Translations under genes and position numbers: made by a program
Part shown: piece by piece, positions 31,575 through 36,385 of the stretch
Position numbering within the stretch: the first letter of the stretch is position 1
Layout: each line of letters opens with the position of its first letter
Origin: Desulfosudaceae bacterium
Lineage (GTDB): Bacteria; Desulfobacterota; Desulfobacteria; Desulfobacterales; Desulfosudaceae
DNA length: 64,000 bases
NCBI GenBank assembly: GCA_963674745.2
Contig: CAXXDV010000003.1
Location: 2,560,001-2,624,000, forward strand
Direction of reading: 5' to 3'
The notes under the pieces: model-generated
Database searches by the model: none
What the model saw: the letters and a program-made list of their open reading frames with translations, nothing else
Told to the model about the DNA's origin: nothing

Positions 31575-33160
31575 CCCAGTCTCCTGGAGTCCTTAAAGGC
31601 GTAAAACTGAACATACCAGTTATCGGTGGACTGCATTTTCTCAAGCACCACTTCCCTGTAAGACTCCTGGGTTTTGCCATCCAGATTTTCAAACCGATCA
31701 GCGATAGCAGCAATGGCTTTGCAGATGATATAGGCTGAATCTGATTCCAAAAATCGAAAAATGGCCCTGGTTGCTTCAGGGGCACGACTGTTCCCCAGAT
31801 TACTGACCAGCCAGTAGCGCTGGGCAAAATCCGTAGTTGTCAGCAGTTTCTGATACCCCGGGAAACCGGCGATATCCAACCGGTTGTCATGAATAAACCG
31901 CAAGGCGACGATGCGCTCTTTGCGGGTACCATCCCGGATAGCGGCTGCGGCCTGATCCCGTGTCAGCGTGTCCGCTGCCGGTGCATCCAGGGCCAGCATG
32001 ACGCATATCCAAAAAATGAAGCAGAGAAGCGGTGCCAGAAATGATGCCACGCGGATATTCAACAGCACGCCGGGAAAAAGACAAAAAACGGCATAGCTGC
32101 TCAGATAAAGAATCAGGGGTGCCACACCCAGCAGGGCGACGATGGTAAACTGTCGAAAAGCCTTGCTGTTATCCGTTTCTGCGGAAAACTGATCGAGTAT
32201 TTCAGCGGCCGATCTCATAAACCGGTTGCGGTCGACAATCAACACGGCCTTTTTTCCATGGCCGAGAATCAGCCGGTCTTCCTGAAAAACAAGTCTCAAG
32301 TCAGCCGCAGGCCCTTCTTCGGCAATGACAAAATAGTTCTGTGCCCGCAACACAGCTTCCAGGCTGCGGGCGGTTTTTGCATCCATATCTCCGGCAATCA
32401 CACAGGTTTTAAGCTGTTTATCAGCCAACGGCTTGAAAACCTCGGCCGGGAACAGGGTATACCGGTAATAAAAATCAACGATCGCGGCACCGGGGCGGGA
32501 GGTCAACAGCAGGTTGTCCTTTAAATTGACAAACACATCCTTGTTCACCTGCGACAACCAGATCGCCAGCAGGACGGCAATAAGCACAAAATGAAAGGGA
32601 TTGCGCCAGGGAAGGCGTTTATACCCTTTTCGTTGCGGCGACCATTTCAGGGTTGCCCAGACAACCGCCGGGGGAACCAGCAGCAAAAAAGCCGTCAGAC
32701 CGGGACAAAGCCCACGGGCATTAGCCCGGATCAGCAGCATCAGCCATCCGATGACTGGAACCGTCGCGGCGGTTGCCGTTATCAGAAGAACCGCCATGCC
32801 CAGGAACCGGAAACCGGGTTTTAACATTCCGGATTTATAAACCCGGACGAGCGACGGCAGCGGCAGAATCAGCAAAATCGTCACAAAGGTCAGCAAAACG
32901 ACTCCCGCGCCCGTACTGAGCGTGAAAAAGGCGCCACCGGCAAAAGCGGCTTCAAAGCTTGTCAGTGACGGGTCAATATTAACGCCGGGCAGTGGACTGT
33001 AGCCTGCCGCCTGGATGGCGGCAATTTTTGCCGCCAGCGACCGGTTGGAAAAATAAACCAGCACGGTCCCGACCACCTGAGCCACCGCCAGTCCCAGAAC
33101 GACCACCCGAAACGGATAGAGGAGGCGCAGGGTGTCTTTAATGTTCGAAACCAGGTTCAA
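31550..33160 (-). CDS. Polytopic membrane protein with C-terminal HEAT-like repeats
   Basis: Many TM segments; C-terminal helical repeats (RYWLVSNLG, ICKAIAAIA); overlaps the CPBP gene. Confidence 0.6.
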   Translation of the reverse strand: MNLVSNIKDTLRLLYPFRVVVLGLAVAQVVGTVLVYFSNRSLAAKIAAIQAAGYSPLPGVNIDPSLTSFEAAFAGGAFFTLSTGAGVVLLTFVTILLILPLPSLVRVYKSGMLKPGFRFLGMAVLLITATAATVPVIGWLMLLIRANARGLCPGLTAFLLLVPPAVVWATLKWSPQRKGYKRLPWRNPFHFVLIAVLLAIWLSQVNKDVFVNLKDNLLLTSRPGAAIVDFYYRYTLFPAEVFKPLADKQLKTCVIAGDMDAKTARSLEAVLRAQNYFVIAEEGPAADLRLVFQEDRLILGHGKKAVLIVDRNRFMRSAAEILDQFSAETDNSKAFRQFTIVALLGVAPLILYLSSYAVFCLFPGVLLNIRVASFLAPLLCFIFWICVMLALDAPAADTLTRDQAAAAIRDGTRKERIVALRFIHDNRLDIAGFPGYQKLLTTTDFAQRYWLVSNLGNSRAPEATRAIFRFLESDSAYIICKAIAAIADRFENLDGKTQESYREVVLEKMQSTDNWYVQFYAFKDSRRLGWIPEKSD

Positions 33161-33176
33161 GGGTTCTTTCTTTCAG

Positions 33177-33260
33177 AAATGGTTAAGTGTTTATGTGATT
33201 ATGTGTTTAAGGTTTTAGAGTTTTAGGGTTTTAGGTGGTTAAGTGATTAAGTGGTTAAGG
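33177..33260 (+). repeat. Degenerate octamer tandem array (G/T-rich on plus), about 10 units
   Basis: AAATGGTT AAGTGTTT ATGTGATT ATGTGTTT AAGGTTTT AGAGTTTT AGGGTTTT AGGTGGTT AAGTGATT AAGTGGTT. Confidence 0.9.
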
Positions 33261-33265
33261 ATTTT

Positions 33266-33757
33266 CTAGTTATCGTTAATCACCTGTGTAAATGTAATCT
33301 CTAAATATGACTCAGAGGCCCCATGCATCATAAGGATTGATTTAACTTCTGCATCTTTTAATAGGCCTGAATCAAAAGGGCCTTCTACCCGCCACCAAGC
33401 GGGGTCAGCCTCCGAGTTATCCTGTAAGAATCTGTTGGATGGATTATCATACGGCTTCAAACCAAGCTTATTCACTAAACGAATAACGGCATCTTTATTT
33501 AATATGAATGCATACGTCACGGCACTACTATTCGATGACTTGTTCACATGAACAACGTTCGAGATGGGCAGCCCGTTATTTTCTAACAACATATCGATTT
33601 TCCGAACAAATTCTTCGTGACTATTACATGAGAACAGTATAGTACAAAAAATAAGCATCAAAGCGATTGCAAATGAGCTTATTCTTATATAGCCCCGACC
33701 AGCCACAGAATATTTTATCCCATACATTGAATTTATGTTTAGCATGTCCTGCGCCAT
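33266..33757 (-). CDS. AT-rich hypothetical lipoprotein
   Basis: Hydrophobic stretch ending in lipobox LFSC. The ORF-track start 33847 lies inside the IS, so the real start is 33757, 33745 or 33727. Confidence 0.6.
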   Translation of the reverse strand: MAQDMLNINSMYGIKYSVAGRGYIRISSFAIALMLIFCTILFSCNSHEEFVRKIDMLLENNGLPISNVVHVNKSSNSSAVTYAFILNKDAVIRLVNKLGLKPYDNPSNRFLQDNSEADPAWWRVEGPFDSGLLKDAEVKSILMMHGASESYLEITFTQVINDN

Positions 33758-33859
33758 AACACCTAAAACTTTAACACCCTGATATGATTGACAGTTGTCA
33801 AATGGAAAATAGTTCTCCTGCCAGTTTTTAATCTGGTCTCCTTGCATTTATGAAATTCC

Positions 33860-34050
33860 AGGGTACCCGGAGGGGCGGAACCTTTAATGCGACGGTTGTT
33901 CACTCTGATATACGCGGGTTGGATACCGCATGACTTTTCTTCGTCGCGGAGCTGCCTCTGTCTAAAATCTGGAGTTAGGCCGAAAGGCTTATCCTATAGG
34001 GTGTCCGAGGGTTCTCCTTTCCGTGGCTGCGCCCCCGCGGCTGCCCTGGA
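33860..34050 (-). ncRNA. Putative bridge/seek RNA of the IS (ends approximate)
   Basis: Contains ACACCCTA and TTTTAG (target) either side of a hairpin, and ATATCAGA (donor junction). Confidence 0.7.
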
Positions 34051-34120
34051 ATATGATGTTGTAAATGGTCTATCGAACCTCCTGTTGATCATGTTTTTGT
34101 ATTTTGCCTTTTGATTGGCT

Positions 34121-35236
34121 CTAATTTGTCAAAGATGCTTCGGATTCAATGGCGATTGCCCAGATAAAACCGCAAAGTTCCCGGGCGATAGCGGTTATAA
34201 TGACCTGCTTGGTTTTTCCTTTGGCCCAAAAATGCCGGTAGCGTCCACAGAGTCTTAATTGTGCTTTCCAGGAAATATCACGGATGCTTTGCGGTAATCC
34301 TTCCTGTTTCTTCAGTAATGCTCGAGTAACCCGTGCTCTGTGCCGGTACGACCAGGCCGCTTCAACCAGTATGCGGCGCACATGCGAATTACCGGTTTTG
34401 GTGATCGGGCCGCGCTTGATATTTTCGCCGGTGGAATATTCTGATGGCACCAGGCCAAGATAGCTCATCAGTTGATCCGGGTGGTCAAAACGATTAAAAC
34501 TTCCGATCTCCACGGTGATTATAGCGGCAGCGAGTAACGAGATGCCGCGCAGGCTCTGGAGCGCTTGAACGACAGGAAACATCCGCCATTGCGGTATGAG
34601 CTGATGTATCTGCTCGGTGAGCCGCTGAACACGCAGGCTGCAATGATCCAGATGGTCGACATATTCTTGCAGGACAATTTGCTGGGACTCATGGGGCATT
34701 TTGATATCGGCAATCCAGCGCCGATGAGCCTGGGTCCACGGCGTACGTCCGGTATACGTAAAACCGCTACGCAGCAGAAAAGCCGACAATCGCTGCTTGC
34801 AACGTTTTTCATCCTGCTTGATATCACTACGCGCTCTGACCAGGTCTCGCAAGGCCTCGTCTTCGGCAAGGGGAACATGAACGGAAGTCAAGTCGCCGGA
34901 TCGATGCAAACGCGCCAGCATAAGAGAATCGCGCCGGTCATTTTTAATCCGGTTCCCGCTCTGCTTGGGAATCAGCGAAGGCGCTACCACCTTACAGTCA
35001 AAACCCTTGGCAGTAAGATGACGATAGATCTGATAACCGCAGGGACCGGCCTCATACACAAAATGCAGATCGGCATTTTTACTGACCATCTTACGTGTCA
35101 CCTTGTCCAGTGCCGCCAATGTTCCATCGATTTGACCATAGTGTACAACTTCACCATTACACCCGCCTTGGGCGATGGAAATATCAATACTTTTTTTGTG
35201 GACATCCATACCGATAAATATGCTATTCTTCTTCAT
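34121..35236 (-). CDS. IS110 family transposase/recombinase
   Basis: DEDD residues in GMDVHK, YEAGPCG and KNDRRD; C-terminal GLVPSEYSTG, ITKTGN, AIARELC. Confidence 0.95.
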   Translation of the reverse strand: MKKNSIFIGMDVHKKSIDISIAQGGCNGEVVHYGQIDGTLAALDKVTRKMVSKNADLHFVYEAGPCGYQIYRHLTAKGFDCKVVAPSLIPKQSGNRIKNDRRDSLMLARLHRSGDLTSVHVPLAEDEALRDLVRARSDIKQDEKRCKQRLSAFLLRSGFTYTGRTPWTQAHRRWIADIKMPHESQQIVLQEYVDHLDHCSLRVQRLTEQIHQLIPQWRMFPVVQALQSLRGISLLAAAIITVEIGSFNRFDHPDQLMSYLGLVPSEYSTGENIKRGPITKTGNSHVRRILVEAAWSYRHRARVTRALLKKQEGLPQSIRDISWKAQLRLCGRYRHFWAKGKTKQVIITAIARELCGFIWAIAIESEASLTN

Positions 35237-35355
35237 GACCTGCCTCCTTGGTATTGGCTCTGTGCCAGGTTAATGTAGGTTGACCTTTAGCATAACCCAC
35301 GTTTGCAAGGATGGCAGGTCATTTCCTTCTATTTTAACTGTCAATCATTATGTCT

Positions 35356-35543
35356 AAAACCTTTAATGCCTCTGCCGCACATCCCCCCAGATCTAACCTA
35401 CACCCTCATAATCACTTAACCACTTAATCACCTAAGCACCTAAAGCTTCTAAGCGGCACTTTCACTTATCGGCTTGGTTCTGCGCTATGCCCCGGTTGGA
35501 CGTTTAAAACCCTAAAACCTAAAACTCTAAAACTTTAAAACCT
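35356..35543 (-). repeat. Degenerate octamer arrays (G/T-rich on minus), continuing 33757-33780 across the IS
   Basis: TAATCACT TAACCACT TAATCACC TAAGCACC (35409-35440) and TAAAACCC TAAAACC TAAAACTC TAAAACTT (35505-35543). Confidence 0.85.
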
Positions 35544-35641
35544 TCGTATAATTATGAGTTGTACTATACCATCGTTCTGTTAAAATACAACATTCGACCA
35601 CGTTCAATCAATTGCGAGACGAAGCCGTCAAAGGAGATAAA

Positions 35642-36385
35642 ATGAAAATAGCCGCCATCATTCCCTCACGCTACGAATCCACCCGTTTCCCGGGAAAACC
35701 CCTGGCGCCGATTGCCGGCACCCCCCTGATCCAGCACGTTTACAATCGTGTCCGCCAGGCCCCTTGCATCACGGACGTCGCCGTGGCCACGGACGACCAG
35801 CGTATTTATGACGCGGTGATGGGTTTCGGCGGGGATTGCGTGATGACCCGGGACAAATGCCGCACCGGAACGGACAGAGTCGCGGAAGCCGCCCGGTTAA
35901 TGGGGCTGGAACCCGGTGACATCGTCGTTAACGTTCAGGGGGACCAGCCGCTGATCGCGGCGGAGACCATCGAACAGACCGTCGCCCCGCTGCTTTCTCC
36001 GGTTGATTTCGGCGTATCCACCCCGCTTCTTGCCATCGATGATGAAACAACGATCAACAGCACCAAAAACGTCAAAGCGGTTTTTGACAGCGGGGGGTTC
36101 GCACTTTATTTCTCAAGGGCACCGATTCCTTATGCCCGCGATCCCGAAACGCCCGCCCGGATTTACAAGCATCTGGGTGTCTATGCTTTTGCCATCGGTT
36201 TTCTGGGCCTGTTTGCCAGCCTGCCGTCGGGGAAACTGGAAGAAATTGAAAAACTGGAGCAGTTAAGAGTGCTGGAGTATGGATACAAAATCAAGGTCGT
36301 CATTACCGAACATGATTCACCGTCCGTTGATCTTCCCGAAGATATCGAGTATATCGAGTCGCTCATGGCCGCCGGTCAGGAGTGA
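35642..36385 (+). CDS. kdsB: 3-deoxy-manno-octulosonate cytidylyltransferase
   Basis: IIPSRYESTRFPGKPL, GTDR, VNVQGDQP, YFSR.PIP, EKLEQLR; AGGAG RBS. Confidence 0.95.
   Translation: MKIAAIIPSRYESTRFPGKPLAPIAGTPLIQHVYNRVRQAPCITDVAVATDDQRIYDAVMGFGGDCVMTRDKCRTGTDRVAEAARLMGLEPGDIVVNVQGDQPLIAAETIEQTVAPLLSPVDFGVSTPLLAIDDETTINSTKNVKAVFDSGGFALYFSRAPIPYARDPETPARIYKHLGVYAFAIGFLGLFASLPSGKLEEIEKLEQLRVLEYGYKIKVVITEHDSPSVDLPEDIEYIESLMAAGQE

Follow-up and report, generated by a model that had tools for sequence, protein, structure and literature searches.

The 64,000-nt window analyzed here, from a Desulfosudaceae bacterium (contig CAXXDV010000003.1, positions 2,560,001 to 2,624,000), contains an intact insertion sequence (IS) of the IS1111 group, ISSso6 subgroup, which very probably carries its own guide RNA aimed at a site in the octamer repeat arrays of its host. 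We put the probability of this reading at about 0.88. The host genome (5.55 Mb in three contigs) holds exactly two copies of the element that are 100% identical (0 differences in 1575 bp), and both occupy the same 11-bp site, ACACC-CT-AAAA, within octamer arrays. A structured RNA predicted downstream of the transposase gene contains two segments that together spell this site, and in related elements the corresponding segments change along with the DNA that flanks each insertion. The mechanism was already described in 2024; the element is a natural example of it, and the target alone is somewhat new. Positions throughout are window coordinates, and features are collected in Table 1.

Excising 33781-35355 in silico joins ...TAAAACTT TAACACCCT to AAAACCTT..., with the octamer phase kept. 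The CT core is present at both element ends (33779-33780 and 35354-35355), and the only repeated sequence is this 2-bp core, which is common to donor and target. Read in transposase sense, the element starts with AG-ACATA-ATGATTGACAGTT and finishes with AACTGTCAATCAT-ATC, leaving terminal extensions of 7 bp (AGACATA, left) and 3 bp (ATC, right) outside the subterminal repeats. These 13-bp repeats were found across 38 related loci, and the element ends are conserved in 33, where they are near-invariant as N-AG/ACATA-ATG... and ...CAT-ATC/AG-N. Copy 1 is flanked by ...CACCTAAAACTTTAACACC-CT and CT-AAAACCTTT, and copy 2 by ...CACCTAAAACATTAACACC-CT and CT-AAAACGTTA. The left flank of copy 2 is the same 22 nt as that on the 33757-33780 side with one difference. 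Similarity between the flanks of the two copies ends about 22 bp to the left (21/22 nt) and 7 bp to the right, and further out the sequences are unrelated; the copies are independent insertions into the same site. The uninterrupted 12-mer, ACACCCTAAAAC, occurs five times in the genome, each time inside an octamer array. An earlier note on the window had proposed these boundaries, the CT core and the in-phase restored array, all of which are correct and backed by copy 2 and by the uninterrupted sites. Every string quoted in that note was found at its position, and the second copy, which might have sat in unrelated DNA, lies in the same site.

The non-coding sequence around the transposase gene is unevenly divided, with 340 nt downstream and 119 nt upstream. 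Taken alone in minus sense, the downstream non-coding region (NCR) folds better than 100 of 100 shuffles (z = -3.9), and in its single-sequence fold a long outer stem encloses two stem-loops that have large internal loops. We collected 79 related loci from public genomes (transposase identity 43-81%), in 33 of which both ends and both flanks were readable, and chose one representative for each of 24 distinct guide pairs for an alignment of the RNA region. From these 24 sequences RNAalifold derived a consensus of 41 pairs, and compensatory changes are seen in 24 of the pairs. Paired cells amounted to 96.5%, versus 85.0% with partners shuffled and 39-47% with partners slid by 1-3 columns. The covariation score was matched by 0 of 500 shuffles, for a structure that was itself predicted from the same 24-sequence alignment. 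A plus-strand open reading frame (ORF) at 33887-34114 (75 aa) was considered as a gene and rejected because this region evolves as the paired RNA of the opposite strand. An IS110-style bridge RNA in the left end was likewise rejected, as only 119 nt lie upstream of the transposase gene (tnp) and the whole covariation signal is downstream.

The minus-strand strings on which the earlier note had built its guides are ACACCCTA (34004-33997), GATTTTAG (33969-33962) and ATATCAGA (33911-33904). The first forms the 5' side of the first internal loop and the second its 3' side, and the hairpin that the note placed between the two target matches is present at 33994-33971. A permutation test compared the six columns before the core on each loop side with the flanks of the same locus over the 24 distinct guide pairs. 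The 5' side agreed with the reverse complement of the right flank in 110 of 144 comparisons (permuted mean 53.3, maximum 76), and the 3' side agreed with the left flank in 84 of 144 (permuted mean 46.3, maximum 65); 0 of 20,000 permutations reached either value. From far to near the core, agreement by position was 7, 17, 23, 20, 22 and 21 of 24 for the 5' guide and 5, 5, 12, 22, 17 and 23 of 24 for the 3' guide, and in 21 of 24 the 5' guide base after the core forms a pair with the final base of the left flank. Shifting the 5' columns by one as a register control gave 47/144, a value reached by 1264 of 20,000 permutations and thus no clear signal. This covariation over 24 relatives shows that both loop segments picked in the earlier note are real target guides. 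Within GATTTTAG, only UUUUAG (33967-33962) occupies positions that covary with the target; the leading GA belongs to a near-constant part of the loop. Covariation of guide and target over homologues, which the earlier note had offered as a check, is thus present for both guides.

A working rule for the clade is that both guides read the 2-nt core, to which the 5' guide adds 5 nt on one side and 1 nt on the other, and the 3' guide 3-4 nt. Applied to the element, this rule spells the 11 bases ACACC-CT-AAAA; the target sequence is ACACCCTAAAA. The proposal that the element is programmed against the octamer arrays accords both with the shared 11-bp site of its two copies and with the covariation of guides and flanks in the clade. 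In a gammaproteobacterial subgroup AA replaces AG at the right end. Six relatives, gammaproteobacterial and other (L051, L055, L056, L057, L059 and L063), have AA at the right junction and AG at the left, and their 5' guide reads ...CGUUA, matching the AA version, so that target core and donor core appear to differ by one base. Copy 1 has in its right flank a further 8-nt match, with UAAAGGUU (33886-33879), which was set aside as chance; this string lies in the outer-stem region, and the flank is missing at copy 2. A scan of metagenomes with a degenerate 21-nt pattern of the 5'-guide region returned six loci, none with the loop context or ends of the element, and yielded no further copies carrying its guide.

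The second stem-loop is identified as the donor loop, and donor pairing is only partly supported. On its 3' side AUAUCAG is identical to the right end plus core, in agreement with the match between ATATCAGA and the predicted circle junction seen in the earlier note. On its 5' side AAAGUCA is a candidate guide placed by position, and copies from Desulfosarcina widdelii have 6/7 matches at the same position. A more distant alphaproteobacterial group has different ends, AG-ACC... and ...ATGAC-AG. Its donor loops match these differing ends (GGUCU against AGACC, 5/5; AUCACAG against ATGACAG, 6/7), which suggests that donor loops change in the expected direction. The donor-loop region 33877-33964 was covered by contigs in great number in every DNA run (depth 983 in run X1 and 100-189 in run X4), and loose contig ends in runs X3 and X4 begin at 33963, the edge of the variable 3' guide. 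This pattern fits a constant donor loop beside a variable guide in many environmental relatives.

The element ends also hold the two halves of a putative promoter. TTGACA and CATAAT occur in 33 of 33 related loci, where their spacing across the joined ends is 18 nt in 30 and 17 nt in three; it is 18 nt in the element. Siddiquee et al. 2024 (PMC11187229) describe circle-junction promoters in elements of both the IS1111 and the IS110 type. We propose that the DEDD recombinase excises the element as a circle, in which the right end, ...CATATC, would be joined via AG to the left end, ACATAATG.... The abutted ends would create a sigma-70 promoter composed of TTGACA from the right end, 18 nt, and CATAAT from the left end, and this promoter, which we predict to fire, would transcribe the transposase gene together with an RNA of ~190 nt downstream of it. 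The RNA, presumably processed and bound by the protein, would fold into two internal loops. The first may pair with both target strands, ACACCCUA with T-AG-GGTGT and UUUUAG with CTAAAA, the two overlapping on the core. The second may pair with the joined ends, where AUAUCAG corresponds to right end plus core and the degenerate AAAGUCA would lie opposite the left end. The target guides would jointly specify ACACC-CT-AAAA, that is, a TAACAC variant unit followed by a CCTAAAAC unit.

The transposase carries the Pfam domains PF01548 (64 bits) and PF02371 (76 bits) and scores 253 bits against the NCBIfam model NF033542, 'IS110 family RNA-guided transposase' (cut-off 140). The catalytic-type residues D11, E62, D100 and D103 are invariant in 26 full-length relatives. 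The IS1111 motif GL-P----S(t)G is present as GLVPSEYSTG (residues 261-270), with G261, L262, P264 and G270 invariant in the same relatives. In IS1111 elements the right-end extension is 3 bp, as it is here. The best named match is an E. coli plasmid gene annotated 'ISSso6 family transposase' (46% amino acid identity, 97% query coverage); identity to IS4321/IS5075 is only ~25%, and sequence matches in the PDB are remote (ISCro4, 9t56, E = 4e-10; IS621, 8wt6, E = 4.5e-7). The source data of Siddiquee et al. 2024 (PMC11187229) file ISSso6 as IS1111 with 801 unique insertions. The identity matrix of the same paper sets ISSso6 at 43-49% to ISCARN28 and others and at ~20-25% to the compact IS1111 cluster; by this matrix ISCARN28 is in the ISSso6 subgroup. 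ISEc45, ISVisp2, ISCps8, ISSpi3 and ISMtsp6 are also among its members. Protein comparison places the element in this subgroup, with the tight IS1111 cluster more distant. The element also has the anatomy of the group, for which subterminal inverted repeats of 7-17 bp (Durrant et al. 2024, PMC11208160) and a required 7-bp left-end extension (PMC11187229) are described. The assignment to the IS1111 type in the earlier note thus holds on the DEDD transposase, the 13-bp repeats with their 7-bp and 3-bp extensions and the long downstream NCR.

Octamer arrays were called with TRF at a minimum of three copies, and three intergenic period-8 families stand out in the host genome: CCTAAAAC-like (81 arrays), CACTTAAC-like (170 arrays) and CCTTGAAC-like (98 arrays). 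Most of these arrays (343/349) lie mostly outside long ORFs, and they are grouped in 255 clusters in which the families are often side by side. Under a stricter count, arrays of the YYTAAAAC type number 105, and a shuffled contig has none. Runs of three exact units are found 76 times in the host and once and twice in its two genus mates; the family's 10 remaining genomes, like the reversed-pattern control, yield none, and several of the genomes compared are fragmented. Period-8 arrays are thus almost confined to one species within its family. We take them to resemble the heptamer STRR repeats of cyanobacteria. Within the window, arrays lie at 33757-33780, 35356-35375, about 35390-35445 and 35505-35550.

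The element uses the site where a TAACAC variant unit meets a CC-initial unit; the genome has seven such junctions in total, two of them occupied. The consensus junction, AAAACCCTAAAA, is found at 47 sites in the genome, the array consensus counterpart of the target being AAACCCTAAAA, and target sites with one mismatch and the core kept number 116. Short tandem repeats of period 7-10 are the setting of five of the 33 related loci (the element, L010, L011, L023 and L043), and the remaining loci sit in hairpins or unique DNA. Two other IS110-family types in the host (2 and 3 copies, one truncated) sit outside octamer arrays; their copies are at C1:2189795-2190226 and C3:1613079-1613510, and at C3:1843816, 1846550 and 2335168. 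Within the limited part of the literature that was covered, we found no report of IS110-family targeting of short tandem repeats, nor of such octamers in Desulfobacter-type bacteria. The earlier note had suggested a new target class. A tandem octamer satellite is indeed the target, but because IS110 and IS1111 elements already aim at host repeats (REP, attC, transposon ends) this is a small extension, and four other loci of the 33 also sit in tandem repeats.

One environmental contig bears on how such guides might change. In the sediment metagenome run X4, a 606-nt contig (depth about 5) covers 33907-34532 with 13 differences (~95% similar). Among these are 34003 G>T, inside the 5' guide, and 34005 C>T, just beside it; the list has no difference in the 3' guide. 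The altered 5' guide would read GAAAACCCUA, matching the consensus junction AAAACC-CT-AAAA (47 sites) in place of the rare variant junction (seven sites) to which the resident copy is set; the case is a single contig whose flanks are unseen. It is conceivable, although we consider it doubtful, that the IS lineage follows the species-specific octamer satellite by re-tuning its guides. If so, nature would offer here two guides that differ minimally and act on a single repeat family, and short tandem intergenic arrays would be suggested as a recurrent safe harbour for the clade.

Table 1 Features of the insertion sequence, its predicted guide RNA and its target site (window coordinates)
Feature	Position	Strand	Description
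Insertion sequence	33781-35355	minus	1575 bp including one CT/AG core copy; two identical genomic copies
Array, left half	33757-33780	+	ends in half-site ACACC plus core CT (33779-33780)
Array, right half	35356-35375	+	begins with half-site AAAAC
Right end (transposase sense)	33781-33796	minus	13-bp subterminal inverted repeat 33784-33796 plus 3-bp extension ATC (33783-33781)
Left end (transposase sense)	35336-35355	minus	core AG 35355-35354, ACATA 35353-35349, 13-bp repeat 35348-35336
Transposase gene	34121-35236	minus	371 aa; DEDD (RuvC-like) and Transposase_20 domains; only long ORF of the element
Predicted -35 hexamer	33796-33801	minus	TTGACA, right end; promoter formed only in the joined circle
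Predicted -10 hexamer	35347-35352	minus	CATAAT, left end
Predicted bridge/seekRNA region	33858-34049	minus	outer stem 34049-34025 with 33882-33858 encloses target- and donor-binding stem-loops
Target-binding stems	34017-34005 with 33958-33948	minus	consensus fold
Target-loop terminal hairpin	33971-33994	minus	all 3 consensus pairs with compensatory changes
5' target guide	33997-34004	minus	ACACCCUA; predicted to pair with T-AG-GGTGT; T match of Siddiquee et al.
3' target guide	33962-33967	minus	UUUUAG (B match, or right target guide); predicted to pair with CTAAAA on + strand
Donor-binding stem-loop	33889-33947	minus	stem 33947-33942 with 33894-33889; hairpin 33928-33913
Candidate 3' donor guide	33911-33905	minus	AUAUCAG, right end plus core, 7/7
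Candidate 5' donor guide	33937-33931	minus	AAAGUCA, placed by position

Several observations weigh against an RNA-guided element aimed at the octamer site. As single-sequence evidence the guide matches are weak and not beyond chance: when the 340-nt NCR was shuffled 5000 times by mononucleotide, 471 shuffles contained an 8-mer matching the 20-nt restored site, 201 had an 8-mer together with a 6-mer for the other strand, and 461 contained an 8-mer matching the predicted circle junction. What makes the matches convincing is solely their place in a conserved structure and their covariation in relatives. In our reading of the guide table some relatives fit their flanks poorly; the misfit concerns the 5' guide in L020, L024 and L039 and the 3' guide in L028 and L035. 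The T and B matches, each out of 6 in the permutation set, were 4/4 for L024, 4/3 for L028, 5/2 for L035 and 4/3 for L039; L020, whose guides are those of L014, was not itself among the representatives. The second donor guide, 'not clearly identifiable' according to the earlier note, can be placed by position, but it matches its expected partner at only 4/7 in the element, and because ends and donor loop are near-invariant, donor-guide covariation is hard to assess within the clade. An Rfam 15 scan of 33000-36000 gave no match at E <= 1, the 371-aa transposase is longer than the 330-350 aa of the compact IS1111 cluster, and an RNA-library run yielded one 261-nt contig within tnp (34210-34470), silent on the guide RNA, from a library that may hold DNA. 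With two copies only, exact-site specificity draws on two cases and the clade-wide rule. Matches of such length in 4-9% of shuffles would also suit a target picked by protein or by DNA shape at A-rich repeats, with the RNA matches coincidental. We find this hardly credible, as guides change along with flanks in relatives with unrelated, non-repeat targets, and the two other IS110-family types of the genome lie outside the arrays.

The two copies might instead have arisen when a larger segment was duplicated or recombined between arrays, which would make their shared site uninformative on targeting. Their immediate flanks are alike over the stretches given above, but the flanks are wholly different further out while the 1575-bp element has no differences, the shared flank is the array consensus itself, found uninterrupted five times in the genome, and the guide-to-flank rule holds in 24 independent relatives; such an origin is very improbable. 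That the element is a silent relic, no longer mobile, whose guides record a past insertion, is unlikely, though it has more to recommend it. There are two copies despite five free perfect sites, neither a circle junction nor a clean empty-site joint was seen in the contigs of runs X1, X3, X4 and X18, and both of these absences tell against a working element. In addition, a transposase search at E <= 1e-60 found no match in the 12 other genomes of the host family (13 searched including the host). Rare circles, however, cannot show up in contigs, and a relic would not be expected to keep copies identical over their full length, an open reading frame with every conserved residue, and both ends, the junction-promoter halves and the RNA stems intact. 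We favor an RNA-guided element that is probably still active. One joint, 33774>35406 (one contig, side 22, depth 2.8), was examined as an empty site and rejected; it is imprecise and probably a product of the octamer repeats.

Beside the element, a 193-codon ORF at 33266-33847 (minus strand) begins within the IS right end and is a hybrid artefact. The host gene beneath it more likely starts at an ATG near 33755, ~25 nt from the insertion, and the IS thus separates this gene from its former upstream sequence.

For annotation, our results imply that the 340 nt after the transposase gene are a guide RNA gene, neither a spacer nor the place of a 75-codon ORF on the opposite strand. With the 24 guide/target pairs, the guide rules of the ISSso6 subgroup, itself unstudied at the bench, gain a clean set of natural data. 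The element also indicates that tuning of a bridge RNA extends to a repeat found essentially in one species alone, and the finding points to the unexplained period-8 satellite families of the host.

The closest named relative is the ISSso6-family copy, which shares with the element the 13-bp subterminal repeat, the CAT-ATC-AG right end and a donor-loop hairpin followed by AATATCAG. It differs in its guides and target and has only 46% identity, and the host of the element is of the Desulfobacterales type. ISCARN28 is among the six elements drawn by Durrant et al. 2024 (PMC11208160) with predicted left and right target guides (LTG, RTG) and left and right donor guides (LDG, RDG), and for 93% of the IS1111 elements in ISfinder the same paper predicts a right-end bridge RNA. 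As described by Siddiquee et al. 2024 (PMC11187229), the IS1111 NCR lies downstream of tnp, and its seekRNA is required and reprogrammable, with the top-strand match located 5' of the bottom-strand one and an overlap of both in the target. The seekRNAs of ISEc11, ISPa11 and ISKpn4/ISPst6 resemble that predicted for the element in the downstream NCR, in match order and in overlap in the target. These elements have a 7-bp left extension, as here, and they have no target duplication and a circle-junction promoter of the kind predicted here. Their RNA co-purifies with the transposase and is required and programmable, properties that for the element are predictions. Their transposases belong to the compact 330-350 aa cluster, ~25% identical to that of the element with IS4321/IS5075 as proxy. 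The ISEc11/ISXne4 pair is an instance of natural retargeting by guide-base change alone (PMC11187229).

IS621 offers a second comparison. Its RNA has two internal loops, one for target and one for donor (Durrant et al. 2024; Hiraizumi et al. 2024), as predicted for the element, with the longer guide on the 5' loop side and the shorter on the 3' side. Its guides are 8-9 nt and 4-7 nt (PMC11208160), and those of the element, 8 nt (5') and 6 nt (3') with the core in both, fall within these lengths. The element core is CT with the target oriented as in IS621. In this CT frame the 5' guide has the sequence of left target plus core, like the LTG of Durrant et al., and the 3' guide is RTG-like, being complementary to core plus right target. 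The element departs from IS621 in having its RNA in the right end and not the left, in its long subterminal repeats and in a recombinase of only remote similarity. It also lies in the opposite orientation to the CT-oriented target, with the transposase gene pointing the other way.

REP-targeting members of the IS110 family include ISPa11, ISPpu9/ISPpu10 and IS621. They resemble the element in their choice of a short intergenic host repeat, whose many copies provide numerous places to land without harm. The target of the element is set apart from theirs as a direct tandem octamer array and not a palindrome, in which the site spans two units, one of them a variant.

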